25,579 nt of DNA from a virus. Taxonomy: Duplodnaviria > Heunggongvirae > Uroviricota > Caudoviricetes. Positions 17 through 25,179 of this stretch are shown piece by piece. The stretch is from IMG/VR virus record IMGVR_UViG_2531839131_000011; one strand, written 5' to 3'. Position 1 is the stretch's first letter. Every line of letters starts with the position of its first letter. A program made the position numbers and the translations under genes. The notes below the pieces were generated by a model, which saw only the letters and a list, made by a program, of their open reading frames with translations, was not told the origin of the DNA and did no database searches.

Positions 17-961
17 ACGGTAAATCAGGCTTCTGGCGCATTACAGAAAAAACAGAACGGCGCAGATATTCCGGGAAAAGATACCTTCACCAAAAATATT
101 GGGGCCTGTCGCGCATATAGCGCATGGCTGAATATTGGTGGCGATAGTCAGGTCTGGACAACTGCGCAATTTATTTCGTGGCTGGAGAGTCAGGGGGCAT
201 TTAACCATCCTTACTGGATGTGCAAAGGCTCATGGGCTTATGCAAATAATAAGGTCATTACAGATACAGGTTGCGGAAATATTTGTCTTGCAGGTGCTGT
301 GGTGGAAGTTATTGGCACCCGCGGCGCAATGACCATACGCGTTACCACGCCGAGCACGTCCAGCGGTGGCGGAATCACTAACGCTCAATTCACTTATATT
401 AATCATGGTGATGCTTACGCTCCTGGCTGGCGACGAGACTACAACACGAAAAACCAGCAGCCTGCATTTGCTTTAGGGCAAACAGGACGCAGGGTCGCAA
501 ATGATAAAGCTGTTGGCTGGAACTGGAATAGCGGCGTTTATGATGCAGATATCAGTGGCGCATCGACATTAATCCTCCACTTTAATATGAATGCGGGGAG
601 TTGCCCTGCTGTACAGTTCCGCGTGAATTACAGAAATGGCGGTATCTTTTATCGTTCAGCGCGTGATGGTTATGGCTTTGAAGCTAACTGGTCAGAGTTT
701 TACACCACAACACGCAAACCCTCTGCGGGAGATGTTGGTGCATATACGCAGGCAGAAGGTAACTCAAGGTTTATTACAGGTATTCGCCTTGGCGGTCTGT
801 CATCTGTTCAGACATGGAATGGTCCTGGCTGGTCTGACAGGTCAGGTTATGTCGTTACTGGTTCAGTTAACGGAAACCGTGATGAATTAATTGATATAAC
901 TCAGGCAAGGCCAATTCAGTATTGCATTAATGGAACGTGGTATAACGCGGGGAGTATTTAA
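2..961 (+). CDS. S': S'v: alternative tail-fibre variable C-terminal domain, promoterless cassette (5' end is the gix crossover, no own start)
   Basis: Frame is open from window position 2. Begins [24 protein letters not shown], homologous to the Sc/Sv junction of the minus-strand S. Ends ...YCINGTWYNAGSI, like the S C-terminus ...[12 protein letters not shown]. The ORF-track start at 218 is internal. Confidence 0.75.
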   Translation, partial: LGLQETVNQASGALQKKQNGADIPGKDTFTKNIGACRAYSAWLNIGGDSQVWTTAQFISWLESQGAFNHPYWMCKGSWAYANNKVITDTGCGNICLAGAVVEVIGTRGAMTIRVTTPSTSSGGGITNAQFTYINHGDAYAPGWRRDYNTKNQQPAFALGQTGRRVANDKAVGWNWNSGVYDADISGASTLILHFNMNAGSCPAVQFRVNYRNGGIFYRSARDGYGFEANWSEFYTTTRKPSAGDVGAYTQAEGNSRFITGIRLGGLSSVQTWNGPGWSDRSGYVVTGSVNGNRDELIDITQARPIQYCINGTWYNAGSI

Positions 962-963
962 TT

Positions 964-1497
964 ATGATGCACTTAAAAAATATTACTGCTGGCAACCCTA
1001 AAACAAAAGAGCAATACCAGCTAACAAAGCAATTTAACATCAAATGGCTTTATTCAGATGATGGAAAAAACTGGTATGAGGAACAAAAGAATTTCCAGCC
1101 AGACACTTTGAAAATGGTCTATGACCATAACGGCGTTATTATTTGTATTGAAAAGGATGTTTCAGCAATTAATCCGGAAGGCGCAAGCGTCGTTGAATTA
1201 CCTGATATTACAGCAAATCGCCGGGCTGATATTTCGGGGAAATGGTTGTTCAAAGATGGCGTAGTGATAAAGCGAACTTATACCGAGGAAGAGCAGAGGC
1301 AACAAGCGGAAAATGAAAAGCAAAGCCTGTTGCAACTTGTCAGGGATAAAACCCAGCTATGGGACTCACAGCTACGGCTGGGCATCATTTCCGACGAGAA
1401 TAAACAAAAATTAACCGAGTGGATGCTCTATGCGCAGAAAGTCGAATCTACAGACCCCTCCAGCCTGCCAGTAACGTTTCCCGAACAACCAGAATGA
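964..1497 (+). CDS. U': U': alternative tail-fibre assembly chaperone (silent orientation)
   Basis: 177 aa, paralogous to the minus-strand U (MMHLKNI.AGN.KT.EQY.LTK... in both). Starts 2 nt after the S'v stop. Confidence 0.8.
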   Translation: MMHLKNITAGNPKTKEQYQLTKQFNIKWLYSDDGKNWYEEQKNFQPDTLKMVYDHNGVIICIEKDVSAINPEGASVVELPDITANRRADISGKWLFKDGVVIKRTYTEEEQRQQAENEKQSLLQLVRDKTQLWDSQLRLGIISDENKQKLTEWMLYAQKVESTDPSSLPVTFPEQPE

Positions 1498-1500
1498 GAG

Positions 1501-1527
1501 AAGGCCCGATATTGGGCCTTAATTTTT
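1501..1527 (+). terminator. Intrinsic terminator between the convergent U' and U genes
   Basis: aaggccc-gatatt-gggcctt hairpin followed by aattttt on the plus strand. On the minus strand the hairpin has no U tract. Confidence 0.5.
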
Positions 1528-2053
1528 ACTCAGGCTTTTGTGGCCATTCGGGATTTGCTGTATCCACACGGCTGACCAGAACGCTGTAGCGTTCCCATGA
1601 CTCCAGTCGTGTGCGTTCCTCATCCGTCGCCATATTCAGCCTGACAGCGCGTTCCAGTGGCTGAATAACGCTTTCAGCTTCAGAAAGCAACGCGCCCTTT
1701 TGTGATTCGGCTTGTTGTTGCTGTTCGTCTGCCGTATAAATCCGTTTAACTACAGCTCCATCCTTAAACATCCACTTTCCTGAATCATCAGCGCGGCGGT
1801 TGGCTGTTATATCGGGAACCTCAACGACGCTAAAACCTTCAGGGTTAAGCGTGGAGGCATCTTTAGTGATGGCGACAATAATATTATTTGCATCGTAAAC
1901 AATCTTTATTGTGTCTGGCTGAAAGTTTTTCACTTCCTCATACCAGTTTTTTTCGTCCTCAGAGTAAAGCCAGATGACTCCGTGCTTCTTTGTTAACTCA
2001 TACTGCTCCAGTGTTTTAGCGTTACCTGCTTTTATGTTCTTTAAGTGCATCAT
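1526..2053 (-). CDS. U: U: tail-fibre assembly chaperone (expressed orientation)
   Basis: 175 aa. ATG at 2053 is 2 nt after the S stop at 2055-2057. Tfa-like sequence. Confidence 0.85.
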
Positions 2054-2054
2054 A

Positions 2055-3647
2055 TTAAACGCTCGCTACATTATACCAAGTGCCATTTATATACTTTTGA
2101 ACTGGTCTGTAATAAACCCCCGCTATATTATCGGCAGAATTGGACCCTGTATCCTGAACATTAATACCAGATAATACATGACCTGACGGGCACTGGAAAT
2201 TCCATGTTTGCCAGTTGTTCACACCATAATATTGCTGTGAGCCAAGCCGAACATCTTTTACATATCGGGAATCTAAATTACTGAAATCAGACGGTAATAT
2301 CCGCCCAGTGATACTTATTTCTTTTTTGCTCTGTAACGTACCGTTCTGAAAGCGGAACACATGCACACCATTAGCATAAGCATCCAGCACCCCATCACCA
2401 TTTTGTTTAAACCCAGTATCGTTATCTCCTAAAACTATTGAATTTCCCCCCAGGGCATTAGCCGTTCCAATCCCCAGATTTCCGCTAAAAATGGCATTAA
2501 TACCGAATATTGAGTGAGAACAATAAAACCCTCGCCCATTGTTAAAATCCAGAATGGCTTGTGCGTTCGTGCTTTCTGTCGCGGGATTAGTTGCTCCCCA
2601 CTTATATGTTGTTTGACCGACGGTATAATCCTGAGTTGGAACAATAACCGTTAGCCCTTCTTCAGCAGAAACCCGCACAGGAAAAGCCCTGCCTTCAACG
2701 TAAAAAACGCTGCATACATCATCTTCTTTAAGGCTTGTTACAATGGAGTGGATTGCGCGCTCATTAGTCTGATACGTCGAAAAATAACCTGCCGCATATG
2801 AACCATGATCAGTCCAGCCACCAGGCATTACCATTCCATTGAATTCGCAGTTATTCATTGCGTAATCACCAGTGGCAGATGTGGTCGTTATAATCACTCT
2901 GGAAGCCAGCTCGCCAGTGCTGCCTGTGGAACGCCGGAAAATAACTGGATACCACTTTCCACCAACTGCATTAGACGGCGCATTAAATGCGTACTGCCGC
3001 ATTCCTTTTTTCTTATCCACCTCGCCTTTGCTGTAAACATTAATGTTACTCAGGAAGCGATCCTTATCAGGAATATCCGCGCCGTTCTGGTTTTTTTGTA
3101 ATGCGCCAGAAGCCAGATTTACCGTTTCCTGCAAACCGAGGTTTTGGATAAACAGCGGCTTATTGGGAATATCTGCTCCGTTCCGGTCTTTTGCCAGACG
3201 GGCATTGGCATTATCCATCGCAATTTTCACCGCTTTTGCGGTGGCTGCCAGCGTTTCACTGGGGCTGTCAGTGGCACTGGTTAGCTGAACGAGGCCTTTT
3301 TTGTTCAGGCTGGCATCCCAGATATCCAGATTTTCACGTGCTGTACGCTGTGCTGATGCCCCGGCAATTTTAATTTCGCTGAGGTTATTTTTTATCAGCA
3401 GCGCGTTATTGCTCATAATGGCTTTAATGGACAGTGCAAGCTGGTTTAATTTTGTTTTATCCGGTTGAATACCGGCTTCTTCCAGCGTGTTTAATAACTC
3501 CGCCTGCACAATATTAAACCAGTCCATACCGGGCCATGTGATAGCATTATTCCCGTCACCTTCTGAAAACCAGCGAACGATAGCACTACGCTGGGCGGAT
3601 ACGGGCGGCATGACGGTTACGCCGCTGTCGTTATCAATATAAAACAT
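2055..3647 (-). CDS. S: S: tail fibre protein (constant N-terminal part 3152-3647 fused across gix to variable part 2055-3125)
   Basis: 530 aa. Coiled-coil-like N-terminal part, C-terminal receptor-binding-like domain. The gix site lies in frame within it. Start overlaps the upstream stop (TAATG). Confidence 0.85.
3126..3151. other. gix-like Gin/Hin-family crossover site inside the S gene
   Basis: ttcctgcaaaccgaggttttggataa: two inverted 12-bp half-sites around a central 2 bp, matching the gix/hix consensus as I recall it. In the S frame it encodes FIQNLGLQE. Confidence 0.7.
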
Positions 3648-7411: not shown

Positions 7412-8891
7412 TAATCACCTCAATACTGACGCCACCGGGAACAAACAACGGGTTGCTGATACCGTTCCTGCGGGCCAGCCGTTGCCAGTTCCGGCTGTTT
7501 CCTGTGTAACGGTACAGGGCCACCATTGCAGGCATCGTCTCCGGCAGGCGGTGCGTTTCACTGCCCGCCAGTTGCAGCCCGCGTTTTTCCAGGTCGGCAA
7601 CAACCAGCAGACGCAGTTGTGTAAGCTGAACGCTGTCTGTCGAAAATCCCTGCTCAGATGCCGTCAGAATGACGGTATCCAGTGCAGCCCCCAGCATGGC
7701 GGCTGTTTTTCCGATATCGGACACACTTTCAAATACCGGGGGCGTGGCTGTACCACTGTCTGAAAAGGATACCTGTGAAAAGCCGCCGTCCGGGGTTATG
7801 GCAGTTAACTGTAACTGTCCCTGTGTGACGGTAGCAGATGTGCTGCTGGCCCCGCTGGCTGTGCCGGTTGTGGTGGACGGGGCATCCAGTACAGGTGCAC
7901 GGGCGGCATTATCCCTCCGGCGACTGAAATCCAGTGCCGCAGTCAGTGCCTGGCTGGCAGCTTCTGCCCGGAATGTCTGCGCCGCTGCCAGCATGACGTA
8001 GTTCAGTGTGGCAATATTTTTTTTTGCAACCGGACTGTTGTACGAGGTTGTGATTGCCCCCTGTCTGCCTGCGGTGTCGGCATGGCGACGTTCGAACCGC
8101 TGCGCCAGACGGTTCCAGGTGGAAAATGCTGTCCGGGTATCGCATAACGATGAAACGCCGGACAGCGCCCCCATCAGCGAGGAGGCCAGCATGGCAGGCT
8201 GGTTAATCAGGCTGGTCACAGAGCCTTTCATCGCAGAAAGCGATCCCATCAGACCGCTGACAGTCTGCGTAACCCCCAGATTGTCCACCGCATCACTGAT
8301 ATCATCGATAACACCGGTTACAGCTTCTATCACGGCGGTTGCCGCCGCAGTGCCATCTTTTACGGTCTGCCAGACAGAGGACAGCGTATCTCCCAGAGAA
8401 CCGGTTACAGCAACGGCCTGTGCCGGTACGACTGCACTGGTGTCTGTCTCTGCGTCCGGGGCAGTATCCTGCAACGACGGATAAACGGTAACGGTGAACG
8501 CGTAATAATTCAGTTCATCCGCTTTAGTGCGGCATTCCCATGAATCCACCATGACGTCCACAGTGCCGAAATCAGGATGTACCAGCTCACCGTTACCCGG
8601 AGCATCAAGAGCATCCATCAGCGCACCCGCTTCATCTCTGGCTGTTTCTGCGTTGCTGTTCAGAATGCAGGCGCTGAATGTACGGGAGCGAAGCTTTTTC
8701 CCCAGGTCATTGACGCCTCCGGTATCACGTAACGGGTACTCGCGTTTAACCAGGCGACGTCCGCCAGCCTGTTTTTGCTCCTCGATGACGAGAAACGGCA
8801 CGTTACGGAACGTGCCTTTGCCGGTTGTTTTCCTGCCTCCACCGGTTTTATCCCGGACAGCATTAACGGCATTTAAAGCATCTTCAAACAT
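7404..8891 (-). CDS. DNA circularization protein N-like (Mu gp43-like)
   Basis: 495 aa. ATG at 8891, 4 nt after the tape-measure stop. Synteny with Mu. Confidence 0.5.
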
Positions 8892-11925: not shown

Positions 11926-13425
11926 TTACAGAATGAACTGAACTTGTGCCGCGAAAATGCGGAACTGGTTAATCAGATTCGGGCCGCACAGCACATCAAG
12001 ACGGTCTTTGTCGTCCTTGTTACGTGCCACATACAGCTCCTCTTTGAACGTGTCGAAATCCTCGACCAGTCCGGCGTTTTCCCATTCTTCAAACAGTGCC
12101 AGCAGCTCCGTTTTGATCACGGATGGCGTCACCACGGCCTGACCGGTGGCAAAGCGGGTGCCATCACTTGCCAGCTTGTGGTTCGGGAATTTCTGCGTGA
12201 TGCGGGTTCGCAGCGAATAACGCAGATAACTCAGCGTGGCGATGGTATTCACGTTCAGATAAGACGGATCGCTGTCACCATACTTGTTCGTGCGGTACAT
12301 CGTGATCATGCGTTCAATCTGCATTTCACCACCATCATTCACGTTAAACGTGGAGATGCCGTCAAACAGCAGCGCATTACGTTCTGACCAGGTGAAACGA
12401 TCCCCCACCGCAGGCGGCATTCTTCCGGGCAACGTCAGCGTCTGGAGTGGACGCGCCGGGTCGATGGAAAGCGCCTGGCTGGCAACGGCACACAGGGTGG
12501 CGGCGTACAGATATGACGGTTCCGGTGCATCGGCAATCCCCATACAGGAAATCAGATGGTCATTACGTCTGACACCAAACGTGGAAATATCCCCATACGT
12601 GCCGGACAGCACTGTCACGGCAAAGCCATCAGCCTGACTGACCGGTCCCCAGCGTTCCTGCAATTCAGTGCGTAACAGATTCAGGTTCGGTTCATCGGTA
12701 TAGGGCATCACAATATATTTGTATTGCAGATCGCCCATTCCCGCGATACTTGCGCTGATATCCGGGTTGATGTATTTCCGGGATTCGGCTTTGAATGCCG
12801 TGATAATCCCGTAAGGGGTGGTTTCACCCGCGTAATAGTTCCAGCGCACATCCACGGCAGATAATGCACCCGTAAATTTTGCAGTCAGAACTATATCTGT
12901 AGCGCCGGCATCATCCGGCGTGGTTGAGAGCAATACTGCCTTCACCGGCAAATCAGGATGACCGTTGATTCGGTCAGTCAGCAGGCCAGCCAGCTTCGAT
13001 CCCTTGGTACCTGCTGCGACGGATACCGCCAGTCGCTGACCGGCAATGTAAGTCACAAGCGAGCCGTTTTCGGTTGCCGTTCCTGACAGTGTGATCATAC
13101 CGACAGTAGTTTTAGAGATAGTATTACCGGGGTTTTTCGCCTGCGGAATACACCACAGCTCCGCCACGCGGTTAGCTTTCAGGAATGCATCTGCCATCAG
13201 TGCCAGCATGGAACCCTGACCAAACGCCGCACTGGCCTGTGAGCCGGAACGGATACGGACAGGCACGTCTGGTGCCGCACTGGCCCCCTTATTGCTTTGC
13301 CCGAACATCAGCACGCGCTGACGGGGGGCCGGTGTTCCGCTGACGGCATTACTGTTATCAAATTCGATATACGCCAGAGGAACGCGAACATCTGGCGGGA
13401 TCGCGTTAAATGAAATATCGCTCAT
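11926..13425 (-). CDS. L: Contractile tail sheath protein
   Basis: 499 aa. N-terminus [25 protein letters not shown] is typical of Mu-type sheath proteins. GGAG Shine-Dalgarno. Confidence 0.85.
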
Positions 13426-13431
13426 TTCGAT

Positions 13432-13662
13432 TTACTCCGTTTTTTTCAGCGCAGCGTCGGTATCATCCGCCGTGTTTTCGGTGCTCCCGACTTCAACCAC
13501 ATCAGTGTTTTCGGTGCTCCCGACTTCAACCACATCACCGGCTACAAGGCGACGTATCCAGAAACTGTTACGGGGCTTTTCTTCTCCCTCAGGCGCCAGT
13601 AATTCCATCGTGAGCGGGTCACGGATGGTTTTTCCCTCTGCGGGTTTAATTTTCAGCATCAT
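13432..13662 (-). CDS. Small neck-region protein (Mu gp38-like) carrying an 11-aa tandem duplication
   Basis: 76 aa. Contains DVVEVGSTENT twice, encoded by a perfect 33-bp duplication at 13472-13537. Confidence 0.5.
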   Translation of the reverse strand: MMLKIKPAEGKTIRDPLTMELLAPEGEEKPRNSFWIRRLVAGDVVEVGSTENTDVVEVGSTENTADDTDAALKKTE

Positions 13663-15092: not shown

Positions 15093-16010
15093 TTACAGGT
15101 AGTCAGCGACAACCAGTTGCAGCTTGCCCTTCATCTCGTTGGAGACGGTGGTATTGCCATCCGCGAACAGTTCACGGTTAAGCAGTTGCTCTGCGGCTTT
15201 TTCCAGCCCGACCGGTACAACGATATGCGTCGGCTTCAGGCCCAGCTTCTTACCGCCATCACCTTCAAAAGAGCGCATCAGTTGCCAGCCCTTCCAGAGG
15301 TTATCCAGCGTCAGATCGCCTTTTACCGCGACAGCCATCTGCCAGAAGCCGTAACCGGCAGCACGCCGGGCGCTGGCACCAAACAGGAACTCGTTATCCA
15401 TAAAAACGTGGTCGTCATCGATACGGGTACGTGCGACCAGTTCGGGTTTGCGGCGCTCCTGGAAAATCAGCGGTTTGACTGCGCGGGAGCAGTCCAGCAG
15501 ATAGAACGGCAGACCACTGAAGCTGTCCTGTTCAACGATGTTGGAGGTATTCTTTACGTCGCCCGTGCCGTCCACATTCGGATATACCGGATGCTCCTTG
15601 TCGAAGAAGTTCTGACCGTCATAGCAGTGCTGGGTAAAGCCATCTTTCAGAAGTTTAAAAATCAGCTCATCCGGCTGAACTGCCGCAGAACGCCCCATCT
15701 CCTGAAAAATCGGCGCATAAATACCCAGATTGTCATCCTCGAAGTCATCACGGGAAATACCCACGGTGCCTTCAAACGTTTTATTGGCGATGGAGTAGCC
15801 ATGCGCTTGCATTTGCTGAATGGTTCGCTTACCCACCCATTCTTTCAGGGTCGGGAATTTACCCAGCCAGCCATAGGTATTGCTGCGGGTGGAAGAGTTC
15901 ACCACCATTGCAATTCTGCTGTACTGCGACGGGGCGTCTTCAAGACCGCCCTGAAAATCCTTACGCCAGGAGGTCATCAGGGCTTTAATGGATGCCGGGG
16001 TGACAATCAT
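15093..16010 (-). CDS. T: Major capsid protein
   Basis: 305 aa. Size and position (after protease/scaffold) and sequence are typical of the Mu T family. ATGA overlap with I. Confidence 0.85.
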   Translation of the reverse strand: MIVTPASIKALMTSWRKDFQGGLEDAPSQYSRIAMVVNSSTRSNTYGWLGKFPTLKEWVGKRTIQQMQAHGYSIANKTFEGTVGISRDDFEDDNLGIYAPIFQEMGRSAAVQPDELIFKLLKDGFTQHCYDGQNFFDKEHPVYPNVDGTGDVKNTSNIVEQDSFSGLPFYLLDCSRAVKPLIFQERRKPELVARTRIDDDHVFMDNEFLFGASARRAAGYGFWQMAVAVKGDLTLDNLWKGWQLMRSFEGDGGKKLGLKPTHIVVPVGLEKAAEQLLNRELFADGNTTVSNEMKGKLQLVVADYL

Positions 16011-17092
16011 TTTTCTTGTTCCTGTTTCATTTTCAGATACTCAGCCTCAGTAATGCCGAGCGCCTTCACTGCTGCCTGTTCATCAGCAGACAGCACCGCC
16101 ACCGCCGGTTTTTCCTGTGACGGTTTTTTCGCTGTGGTGGTCTGCATGGCAGATAACGCAGCGATGGGCTGTTTTTCCTCAAGCTGTGCCGACAGTGCCG
16201 CCACGCCAATCTGACCGCCAAGCTGTTCCAGGTAAGTGCGTTCGCTTTTGAAAATGCGGCCTTCCTGTTCCGCCTTGTCCAGAACGGCGCTCAGGCTGGC
16301 TGCGGCGCTTTGTGCAGTCGCCTGTGCCAGTTCATCACGCAGGGCGTTGTAGCTTTCCACCGGGACGTATTTCGTCAGGTCAACGGCGGCTTTCTGTGCC
16401 TTTTCCAGTTCGGCGGATAACGACGCCACTTTTCCGGCATCTGTTTCGAGCGCATCAAGCGCACTCAGGGCCGCACTGGCCTGTTCATCGGTGATGTCTG
16501 CATTTTCGGGGACCGTCACTCCAAGACGCGCAAGCAGCTTGCGCAGCGTTTCATTCATGGGTTTGTTCTCCTGTTGAAGGATGTCGGGAAGGTCTGCCGC
16601 CAGTGCGGTCAGCTTTTTCATGCCGGTGGCACCGGGGTCATTGGTCAGCGCAGCAAGGCGGATTTGCAGCACCGCACCGGTGGCGGTGTCATACGGAAAA
16701 ACCGCAGAGAGATAACCAAATTCGCCGTCATCGATGCGCTGCTGCGCCGCCGCCGTCCAGCGTGGGTGGATAAATAATCCTTCACCTTCACGCCACTGCA
16801 TTTCATCGGCGTTAAACCAGCCAGCCGCGACGAGTTGTTCCGGGGGTAATCCTTTGTCCTTACGTAGCTGGTTATGCTCGTAATCAATCAGTACGTCCTG
16901 GTTGAGCGCGCGAACGCCTTCAACCAGACGCCCGGCAATCTCACCGTCGATGAACCACCCCTGACCACCTGTCACATCAAACGGGCGACCATCACGGGCA
17001 CTGAAATGACCGGCAGGCAATAGCTGGCACCAGCCGTCATCGTCAATGGACAGCGCACTCAGTGCGGCAATGCCAATCGCGTGTTTTTTCAT
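16007..17092 (-). CDS. I: Head maturation protease / scaffold protein I
   Basis: 361 aa. N-terminal protease-like half and Ala/Gln/Glu-rich coiled-coil C-terminal half. First gene after the G-I gap. Confidence 0.8.
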   Translation of the reverse strand: MKKHAIGIAALSALSIDDDGWCQLLPAGHFSARDGRPFDVTGGQGWFIDGEIAGRLVEGVRALNQDVLIDYEHNQLRKDKGLPPEQLVAAGWFNADEMQWREGEGLFIHPRWTAAAQQRIDDGEFGYLSAVFPYDTATGAVLQIRLAALTNDPGATGMKKLTALAADLPDILQQENKPMNETLRKLLARLGVTVPENADITDEQASAALSALDALETDAGKVASLSAELEKAQKAAVDLTKYVPVESYNALRDELAQATAQSAAASLSAVLDKAEQEGRIFKSERTYLEQLGGQIGVAALSAQLEEKQPIAALSAMQTTTAKKPSQEKPAVAVLSADEQAAVKALGITEAEYLKMKQEQEK

Positions 17093-17109
17093 GTCCTGCT
17101 GCTCATCAT

Positions 17110-17147
17110 GGTTTGTGAGCAGTCAGTTTGCGGGAGGTGCGGGAAAA
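17110..17147 (-). promoter_or_regulatory. Candidate C-dependent late promoter P-I
   Basis: Minus strand CCCGCACCTCCCGC AAACT GACTGC about 25-55 nt upstream of the I start. Same CCCGCACCT...GACTGC element as upstream of lys. Confidence 0.45.
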
Positions 17148-17288
17148 TCTGGGGTTATGCTATTTGAGTACTGGAGAAAGAAAGTGGAAGGAAGATAAAA
17201 CGGGATTCATACACCGTTAAATACCGGTTTAAAAATCCCGTGGCGCGTTTTAAAAAATCTGTGCAGCTGATTTTATGCCTGATTCTGT
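17148..17288. other. Non-coding G-I spacer; candidate strong gyrase site
   Basis: Largest non-coding gap in the operon. Relatively AT-rich. Position matches the Mu genome centre, where a strong gyrase site between G and I has been described. Confidence 0.4.
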
Positions 17289-17759
17289 TTATTGCCTCAG
17301 AGCGGCGCTGACGCGTTTTCTGATGGCATCAAAAATTTCCTGTTCCCCGGTCTTATCCAGCCCCATATAAGGACGCGCAGGAACGCCTGCCGGGCGGGGT
17401 GCCATATCGGGTGTACCGCCCCACTGATGAATGGCAGCATAAATTTTTGGCGAACCAATCAGGGCATAATCCTGTCCATAATCGGTGGTAATACTGCGTG
17501 CCAGATCGCCATGCAGGGTAAGAATACTGCCCGGAACAAAACCATGATCCTGACGCCATGTCTGCCACGAATCGCTCCATGCTTCCCAGCCTTTCCCTGT
17601 ATCCGGGTCTGCCTGCCGTTCAAATGCCTGTTCCGTGGATGACAGCAGCGCCGCAGACATCACACGGGGAATGGCGCGGTCACGTGTGACGGTTCCCAGT
17701 TCATCCAGCGCAAGCTGAATACGTCGCACATCCACGGCAACGTTCATATCAAGACTCAC
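17289..17759 (-). CDS. G: Virion morphogenesis protein G (Mu gp31-like)
   Basis: 156 aa. GTG start at 17759 with GGAGG Shine-Dalgarno 7 nt upstream, overlapping the F stop. Confidence 0.55.
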   Translation of the reverse strand: MSLDMNVAVDVRRIQLALDELGTVTRDRAIPRVMSAALLSSTEQAFERQADPDTGKGWEAWSDSWQTWRQDHGFVPGSILTLHGDLARSITTDYGQDYALIGSPKIYAAIHQWGGTPDMAPRPAGVPARPYMGLDKTGEQEIFDAIRKRVSAALRQ

Positions 17760-19075
17760 TTATTCACCTCCACATGCCCCTCCAGTACGTCAATCATCCC
17801 GTCAGCAATCGCGGCTTCAAGCGACTGTGCAGATACGCGGCTGATACTGACCAGCACATCCGCCCGGTCATTCTGTTTGCTGACAGCCTGCGATGTTCTG
17901 ACCACAACTTTTGCAGTGCCGTCGCGGGTTGCCACAACATACAGCAACTGGTGGTTCTCCCTGTCCCACAATACCGCCTGTGGTTTTGCCATCAGCGACG
18001 GCAGACGCTGTAAATCTTCCGGTTTCAGGGCGGCATCAGCAGTGGTCGCCAGACTTTTCCCGTTCATCACAAGCAGACGGGCTGGCATATTCCCGGTGCG
18101 CTGATGTACGGCTTCAGCCACGGATCCCGTCATAAAACCCAGCGCCCGGATTTCATGACCGGTCTGATGTGATCCTGCCAGGCGTTTAAGCCAGAGGGAA
18201 AAAGCAAGCTGACGCTCCCGGCTGTTATTCAGCGTCTGCACAACCTGCTCACGCAGCTGCGCGTCGTGAATTTCCACCAGTTTTCGAATCAGTGCCTGAT
18301 CCGTACCAAAAGCTGCCGAACCGGGGTTATATGACCAGCCCACATCCGGCGTCATTTTTACCTGACCGTTGTCAAACGTGGTTGACGATGTGCGGAAAAT
18401 CTCGCCGGTGCTTTCATCCGTACCGGCATCCACTTCGCGGGTATTCATGAATGACGCACCATAACTGACCTGTAGCCCCAGTTCTTTCATGCGGGCCGCA
18501 GACAGCGCCCGGACGCGACAGCGGCAGCGCCAGCCGTTCGGCGGGTAATGCGTCTGCCAGAAAATGTCGTCATACCGGAAAACCACATTGTGCAGCCGCG
18601 CATGTTCCGGGCGCGTTCTGCTGTCCATAACGGCGACATACTGCCAGTACGGATACAGGTCCGCCGTGTTCATCATCTGCGCATAACGTCCCGCCGCATA
18701 TGCTGTACGGGTGTTGACGTCATAAATGGTTGCCAGACGACGCGGACTGCCCAGCTCAATTTTCTTCGCGTTTCCGTCTGTATCCACGATGATTTGTTTT
18801 CCCCACCATCCGAGTTTTTGCAGCCGGGGGGCCAGTGTGCGGGTAAATTCCTCACGGGTGATACCTTCACTGACAGCCCGCTCCACTTCCTCACGGATTG
18901 TGGTCAGTACATCCATCCGGGTGGCTTTGGCAACGGTAAAGGCGCGGGCGTGCGCGTCTGCCAGTTGTTCGTACCAGTTCCAGGTGATGTTGTAGCCTTT
19001 GGCGCGGAAATACGCGACAGCCTCCTTTGGCGGGAGGCGTGCGGCATACGCCAGATCAATGGTCTGCTGCGGCAT
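17756..19075 (-). CDS. F: Head morphogenesis protein F (Mu gp30-like)
   Basis: About 439 aa from ATG 19075. The ORF-track start at 19111 is a GTG with no Shine-Dalgarno. Lies just after the portal gene. Confidence 0.65.
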   Translation of the reverse strand: MPQQTIDLAYAARLPPKEAVAYFRAKGYNITWNWYEQLADAHARAFTVAKATRMDVLTTIREEVERAVSEGITREEFTRTLAPRLQKLGWWGKQIIVDTDGNAKKIELGSPRRLATIYDVNTRTAYAAGRYAQMMNTADLYPYWQYVAVMDSRTRPEHARLHNVVFRYDDIFWQTHYPPNGWRCRCRVRALSAARMKELGLQVSYGASFMNTREVDAGTDESTGEIFRTSSTTFDNGQVKMTPDVGWSYNPGSAAFGTDQALIRKLVEIHDAQLREQVVQTLNNSRERQLAFSLWLKRLAGSHQTGHEIRALGFMTGSVAEAVHQRTGNMPARLLVMNGKSLATTADAALKPEDLQRLPSLMAKPQAVLWDRENHQLLYVVATRDGTAKVVVRTSQAVSKQNDRADVLVSISRVSAQSLEAAIADGMIDVLEGHVEVNK

Positions 19076-24665: not shown

Positions 24666-24685
24666 GCTTCCCTGAAAAAATGCGC

Positions 24686-24725
24686 TGATGGCAGTCTAAA
24701 AAATCAGATGGCAGGTGCGGGATTA
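24686..24725 (-). promoter_or_regulatory. Candidate C-dependent late promoter P-lys
   Basis: Minus strand CCCGCACCTGCC ... TTTTTTAGACTGCC between the C terminator and the lys start. Confidence 0.5.
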
Positions 24726-24735
24726 TGGTGACAGG

Positions 24736-24762
24736 AAATAACCGGCAGGATGCCGGTTATTT
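24736..24762 (-). terminator. Intrinsic terminator of the middle (C) transcript
   Basis: Perfect stem aaataaccggca / tgccggttattt with 3-nt loop. The C stop codon lies inside it. Followed on the minus strand by a short U-rich run. Confidence 0.6.
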
Positions 24763-25179
24763 TGGGCTTTCAGGTGAGAACAGATCAGGCTGATGACGTC
24801 GTGTATGCAGCTTTCTCTGGCGGGCAATAATCTGGTAGATCTGCGGCTGGGACAGGCGATACTGGCGACGCAGTTCTTCCATGTTACGACCATTGAACTG
24901 GCAGTAAAGCAAATCGTCGCGTAACGCGGTCAGGATCGTATCGCCGCAGGGGATGTAAAACTGCCGCCCGCCCAGAAAACAGGACAGGGCAACGGCCTGT
25001 TTACGGGCAAGCTCACGGGGATTGCTGACGTTCTGGCGTTTCAGTTCGTTTTCCAGAATATCAATCAGATCAACCACTGAACGGGGCCAGCGTGATTCCA
25101 GTTCCGGGGCCGGGATGTTATCAATATGCCCGATTAACTGGCGAATTGCCGGATCGTGTTCAAATAAATCATGCTGCAT
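24757..25179 (-). CDS. C: Late-gene transcriptional activator C (Mor/C family)
   Basis: 140 aa. Sits directly upstream of the lysis genes, separated by terminator and promoter. Confidence 0.8.
   Translation of the reverse strand: MQHDLFEHDPAIRQLIGHIDNIPAPELESRWPRSVVDLIDILENELKRQNVSNPRELARKQAVALSCFLGGRQFYIPCGDTILTALRDDLLYCQFNGRNMEELRRQYRLSQPQIYQIIARQRKLHTRRHQPDLFSPESPK

Follow-up and report, generated by a model that had tools for sequence, protein, structure and literature searches.

The G–I intergenic region of a Mu-like phage very probably corresponds to the Mu central control region, with a strong gyrase site, a terminator-like hairpin and the late promoter P_I

Phage Mu's strong gyrase site (SGS) is a textbook example of its kind and the standard substrate for biochemical, single-molecule and cryo-EM studies of gyrase and for validating Topo-Seq. 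It is the strongest known gyrase site, supports processive supercoiling, organises the prophage into a domain with synapsed ends and is needed for prompt replicative transposition, a role it fulfils best at the genome centre (PMC10052514, PMC3820752, PMC6379681). Its left arm is dispensable, whereas the first ~40 nt of its right arm are essential (PMC6463007); footprinting, genetics and cryo-EM (including PMC11626157) place this right arm around the C-terminal domain of GyrA, with its A/T minor grooves toward the protein, such that it presents the T-segment. In the gyrase–Mu217 cryo-EM structure, the enzyme cuts between two dA residues and, on the other strand, at 5′-T/GATTT-3′ (PMC11626157). 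Other strong gyrase sites (pSC101 par, the pBR322 site and the BIME/REP elements) are alike in preferential gyrase binding and cleavage and in their phased flanking bending signals, but have no sequence relationship to the Mu-type SGS. They reportedly do not fully substitute for the Mu site, a result ascribed to Pato and Banerjee (1999), and they are not known to be tied to the centre of a transposable genome.

We analysed a 25,579-nucleotide stretch of caudoviricete DNA (IMG/VR record IMGVR_UViG_2531839131_000011; hereafter the window), which megablast searches with positions 16000–18200 and with the first 25 kb as queries revealed to be the minus-strand late region of a Mu-family phage, 96.4–97.0% identical to and collinear with Mu, D108 and PhiR68_1. 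The window matches Mu coordinates ~9,560 to 35,030 (window position = 35148 − Mu coordinate), retains intact ORFs for 31 Mu late genes and contains neither phage end. Between genes G and I lies a gap of 196 bp (17093..17288), equal in length to that of Mu (17860–18055) and identical to it at 194 of 196 positions. GenBank records of Mu annotate four features within this gap, namely the gyrase cut site, a TransTermHP terminator, P_I and the ribosome-binding site of I, and the features that we located in the window are collected in Table 1. The gap is very probably the orthologue of the Mu central G–I control region, with three predicted functions within about 250 bp: that identity is real, was correctly interpreted in the preliminary description of this DNA and is already known from Mu. 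Hence, the element is confirmed as a typical Mu relative, with its replication-enhancing site and late-transcription circuit intact in sequence, and offers no new biology in this respect.

Table 1. Features of the G–I region and associated genes in the window.
Feature	Position	Strand	Remarks
Gene G (Mup31, virion morphogenesis/neck protein)	17289..17759	−	156 aa, intact; 98.7% DNA identity to Mu G
Gene I (Mup32 head protease, internal scaffold Z)	16007..17092	−	361 aa, intact
Gene C (late-transcription activator required by P_I)	24757..25179	−	97.9% identity to Mu C; intact, 140 aa
SGS left arm (−65..−26), inside G coding sequence	17296..17335	−	coordinates transferred from PMC6463007
SGS core/gate segment (−25..+25)	17246..17295	−	Mu-identical except +6
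SGS right arm (+26..+85)	17186..17245	−	anatomy per PMC6463007
Gyrase cleavage stagger (by homology), 4 bp	17269..17272	both	AATC on − strand, GATT on + strand
Phased A/T tract 1, TTTTTTAAAA	17257..17248	−	3′ edge of core
Phased A/T tract 2, TTTTTAAA	17235..17228	−	right arm
Phased A/T tract 3, TATTTAA	17223..17217	−	right arm
Difference 1 from Mu: C17883 to T, SGS +6	17265	−	adjoins +7G/+8C bend site; rare among relatives
Difference 2 from Mu: T17961 to C, SGS +84	17187	−	C is the common allele among relatives
Terminator-like RNA hairpin and U-tract	17192..17241	−	dG −19.8 kcal/mol, z −2.9
Late promoter P_I (C-dependent by homology)	17105..17171	−	identity to Mu P_I; alignment with P_lys, P_P and P_mom
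P_I C-site right half, ATAAC	17158..17154	−	dyad spans about 17169..17154
P_I −10 hexamer, CAAACT	17130..17125	−	late-promoter alignment
Ribosome-binding site of I, GAG	17102..17104	−	transferred from Mu annotation

The prominence of the gap, which had been described as by far the largest in the operon, is borne out by a ranking of 31 consecutive late-gene junctions mapped from Mu, where it comes first at twice the size of the next largest; the C–lys (94 bp) and T–gp35 (66 bp) gaps follow, and the remaining junctions are at most 14 bp or overlapping. Its non-promoter part (17172–17288) is indeed AT-rich, at 39% G+C versus 54% for the window, but only moderately so and not to an extreme; the whole gap has 44% G+C and falls within the lowest 6% of 196-bp windows. 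An Rfam search of 16900–17500 gave no match at E ≤ 1. There is likewise no plausible ORF, as had been stated: none of at least 20 aa with an ATG, GTG or TTG start occurs on the sense strand. Two GenBank records annotate small ORFs in the gap, D108 gp31.5 and an antisense ORF of Mu_3F6, which might point to an encoded small protein. We rejected both: neither is conserved as an ORF, the sense ORF begins with ATC, the antisense one would start with CTG, not ATG, both in the window and in Mu, the in-frame substitutions in these ORFs are all non-synonymous and no homologous ORF is found in the diverged gap of the SE11-type E. coli lineage (see below). The chance that the gap codes for such a protein is thus close to negligible.

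The G-proximal part of the region is the Mu SGS, in keeping with the proposal of a strong gyrase site between G and I. Alignment to the published Mu site, which had been suggested as a check, returns 148 of 150 identical positions over −65..+85, the differences being the C-to-T change at +6 and the T-to-C change at +84. The core is identical at 49 of 50 positions, and the +26..+65 segment of the right arm and the cleavage tetranucleotide are unchanged; together with the same flanking genes and the same 196-bp gap, these constitute the likeness to Mu. The earlier placement of the site within the gap holds for the right arm and most of the core, and does not hold for the left arm and the beginning of the core, which occupy the last ~47 nt of G. 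By mapping the cryo-EM scissile bonds (PMC11626157) onto the window, at 17273|17272 on the minus strand and 17268|17269 on the plus strand, we fixed the predicted stagger listed in Table 1; it agrees with the +7G/+8C bend numbering of PMC6463007, and the "gyrase cut site" of the Mu GenBank record (17879^17880) converts to 17269|17268.

Sequence statistics alone would not single out a gyrase site here. When positions are scored by strong/weak-base match to the 133-bp consensus published for Topo-Seq, a measure confounded by G+C content, the SGS ranks 1,249th of 50,894 positions, and by G+C-normalised correlation it ranks 11th to 69th of the 50,894 window positions, not first. In Fourier analysis, the right arm shows a weak A/T periodicity of 10.5–11 bp, which falls in the top 9% of windows and is matched by 183 of 5,000 shuffles. 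We identify the SGS, instead, because of its near-identity to the experimentally defined Mu element.

The right arm also harbors the dyad noted earlier, with ACGGGATT at 17200–17207 and AATCCCGT at 17234–17241 on the plus strand, and this dyad is a terminator-like hairpin. Its outer stem of 9 bp pairs 17241..17233 with 17208..17200 and is supplemented by a 4-bp inner stem; the tract UUUAUCUU follows at 17199..17192, such that the sense RNA has the hairpin (17241..17200) and then UUUUAUCUU, the layout of an intrinsic terminator. The long, branched 24-nt loop is atypical for a terminator, and a simple terminator scan of 16800–17600 did not find the hairpin because of this loop length. The TransTermHP terminator of Mu (17908–17953) converts to 17240..17195, the same place. 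We presume that the hairpin marks the end of the lys-to-G late transcript. The end of the lys transcript is said to have been mapped between G and I in Mu by Zha, Zhao and Howe in 1994.

The I-proximal part had been suggested to carry a C-type promoter element, and indeed 17171..17105 is identical at 67 of 67 positions to P_I as annotated in Mu AF083977 (17977–18043, "late promoter, PMID 2522923"). P_I has the CATAAYCCC box in common with P_lys and P_P of the window, and its −10 hexamer aligns with theirs; when Mu's four late promoters are stacked, CAAACT falls in register with TAGACT, TATCCT and TAAGAT, with the CATAAY box aligned. The Mu promoters P_lys, P_P and P_mom (Margolin, Rao and Howe 1989) are alike in the −10 register, in having no −35 element and in the CATAAC half-site near −43.5. 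The C site is known as an imperfect dyad, TTAT-N5-6-ATAA, centred about −43.5; P_I contains ATAA(C) as the right half, and its left half, TCAA, matches TTAT poorly (2 of 4 bases), as it does in Mu P_I. A simple scan of 16800–17600 detected no sigma-70 −35/−10 pair, as expected for an activator-dependent promoter, and the activator gene C is present and intact in the element. We infer a transcription start near 17118. Elsewhere in the window, P_P (7812..7746) matches Mu at all 67 positions, and P_lys (24739..24673, minus strand) at 64 of 67, its three differences lying downstream of the C box.

Of the two departures from Mu in the gap, only the C-to-T change at +6 is unusual. At a distance of 6 bp from the centre of cleavage, it converts AGCC beside the stagger into AGCT, a palindrome, and creates a TpG step adjoining the +7/+8 kink. 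Among 25 sampled sequences, the T allele occurs in three: the window, one IMG/VR contig 99.76% identical to it over 3.4 kb, and E. coli 2014C-3075. None of 40 complete E. coli genomes carries the exact 65-bp core of the window. Exact-pattern scanning of a single genome per species yielded no copy of the core, and IMG/VR yielded six. The Topo-Seq consensus prefers G/C at +6; since T departs from this preference beside the gyrase bend, the strength of the site could differ from that of Mu. Taken to its extreme, this would leave the gap as transcriptional punctuation only, a terminator and a late promoter, with the gyrase site weakened or inactive. In addition to the rarity of the allele and its departure from consensus, which speak for such a loss, one has to consider that the remainder of the core and the whole essential right arm are identical to Mu, that the same T is carried by a 37.1-kb prophage of E. 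coli 2014C-3075 that has intact ends and looks complete, that natural cores tolerate other changes (−16, −8, −4 and +7) and that the CpG-to-TpG change would keep a flexible pyrimidine-purine step. Accordingly, we regard this punctuation-only reading as very unlikely, and favor a working SGS alongside the transcriptional signals.

Natural variation in the SGS is concentrated in the core. In the alignment of 25 sequences, the polymorphic positions cluster at −16, −8, −4, +6, +7 and +25, and among 23 close relatives six sites vary within the 50-bp core, against only two singleton changes in the 40 essential nt with which the right arm begins. Two natural core haplotypes are discernible, a Mu-type with A-16, G-8 and A-4 and a D108-type with T/G-16, A-8 and G-4 (Mu 17862, 17870 and 17874), and the window has the Mu-type haplotype plus the rare +6 T. 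The base pair altered at −8 has been described as belonging to the left-hand gyrase bend site.

The nuB up-mutations of Mu, located at ±3 (PMC6463007), offer a precedent for laboratory alleles near the cut. As nuB1 and nuB103 are described at ±3 and the pMP1000-derived fragment is altered at +4, the +6 T is probably not a nuB allele. The fragment in question is the 133-bp "Mu SGS" used for Topo-Seq and in vitro work (PMC6379681, Supplementary Table S2), which differs from wild-type Mu AF083977 by G17881C (+4). This presumably represents the nuB allele carried by pMP1000, and the base change does not fit the published verbal descriptions of nuB1/nuB103 as ±3 transitions. By analogy with these up-mutations, the +6 T could itself have been selected in nature as a "nu-like" allele with altered affinity or processivity of gyrase, a reading that we consider improbable.

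If the element behaves as Mu does, host DNA gyrase would bind the gate segment centred at 17270/17271 and cleave it with the 4-bp stagger at 17269–17272, while the AT/GC-phased right arm (17245..17186) would wrap one GyrA C-terminal domain, thereby presenting the T-segment and supporting processive supercoiling. With the SGS near the middle of a ~37-kb prophage, the resulting supercoiled loop would bring the two Mu ends together, and the paired ends would favor transpososome assembly as well as prompt replicative transposition following induction; the SGS would also keep the prophage as a separate topological domain. On the transcriptional side, the hairpin and U-tract in the right arm most likely end the lys-to-G late transcript, and P_I, C-activated and sigma-70-dependent, would restart transcription of I-Z-T and of the head and tail genes further downstream. 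The anatomy, the near-identity to the characterised Mu sequences and the conservation of the phased tracts are direct observations; for this element, homology predicts that gyrase binds and cleaves the site, that the site acts in replication, that transcription terminates and that P_I depends on C. As the phage ends lie outside the window, we infer from relatives that its SGS is near the middle of the element: the prophage of E. coli 2014C-3075 (37,097 bp, apparently complete, with perfect Mu L and R ends, inserted in ddpA and bearing the +6 T allele) places the SGS centre at 48.0% of its genome length (17.8 kb from L, 19.3 kb from R), and the corresponding value for Mu is 48.7%.

The region is present in 44 of 5,426 complete E. 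coli genomes, with 41 of the 44 copies at least 97.8% identical. D108, SfMu, PhiR68_1, the Yersinia vB_YpM Mu-like phages and E. coli Mu-type prophages share the same architecture and length (97.8–99.4% over 501 bp). The prophage of E. coli Z0117EC0036 is otherwise near-identical, with a frameshift annotated in its I protease gene. In an E. coli lineage at 82% identity (SE11, TUM9757), the gap is 201 bp long and heavily diverged; it retains ATAAAATCA, T-tracts at +16–20, +36–40 and +48–51, a different hairpin with UUUAUCUUU after it, the GATAACCCC box and a CACACT −10. Beyond E. coli, we recovered seven further Enterobacterales loci with I proteins 51–71% identical and G–I gaps of about 200 bp or more, from Kluyvera (three, with near-identical gaps), Erwinia, Edwardsiella, Apirhabdus and another member of the Enterobacteriaceae; five gaps, one per lineage, were aligned. 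The Edwardsiella gap measures 691 bp. At the place equivalent to the Mu terminator, hairpins in the distant prophages are no better than those of shuffled sequences.

What persists across this divergence is a set of three TTTRAA tracts spaced about 20–21 and 11–12 bp, seen in the SE11-type lineage and in all five aligned Enterobacterales lineages; these units are the only well-aligned columns of the five-gap alignment, and the intervening sequence is not conserved. In the distant prophages, an AAAATC motif abuts the first TTTRAA unit, about 11 bp closer than in Mu. As this is one helical turn nearer the tracts, it hints that the cleavage site and the wrapped arm may, separately from any effect of the +6 T, shift in register by 11 bp, which we likewise deem improbable. 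The behaviour of the units as direct repeats with fixed spacing across genera, and the inconstant distance of the Mu cleavage core ATAAAATCA from them in the distant prophages, might also signify binding of another DNA-bending or phage-encoded protein, instead of or besides gyrase wrapping. Published footprinting, genetics and cryo-EM, however, put exactly the right arm on the GyrA C-terminal domain with its AT minor grooves inward, and the gyrase–SGS literature that we examined describes no additional factor for these units, making a dedicated binding protein exceedingly unlikely. We thus favor gyrase wrapping for the conserved tracts. The core alleles (−16, −8, −4, +6 and +7) together with the cross-genus right-arm tracts could form a small natural mutagenesis set for gyrase site selection.

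Outside the G–I region, the most diverged part of the window is the S/U host-range module (1526..3647, minus strand, and 218..1497, plus strand), which matches P88/P7-type fibres at ~93%: tail-fibre gene S encodes 530 aa versus 504 in Mu, tail-fibre gene U has 87.5% DNA identity, and the module also includes the inverted S′/U′ ORFs of the invertible G segment. Further differences are found in the gp38 region (13422..13662, minus strand), which is 83% identical to Mu with a longer ORF (76 versus 67 aa), and in the adjoining sheath gene L, whose product has 499 aa versus 495 in Mu.
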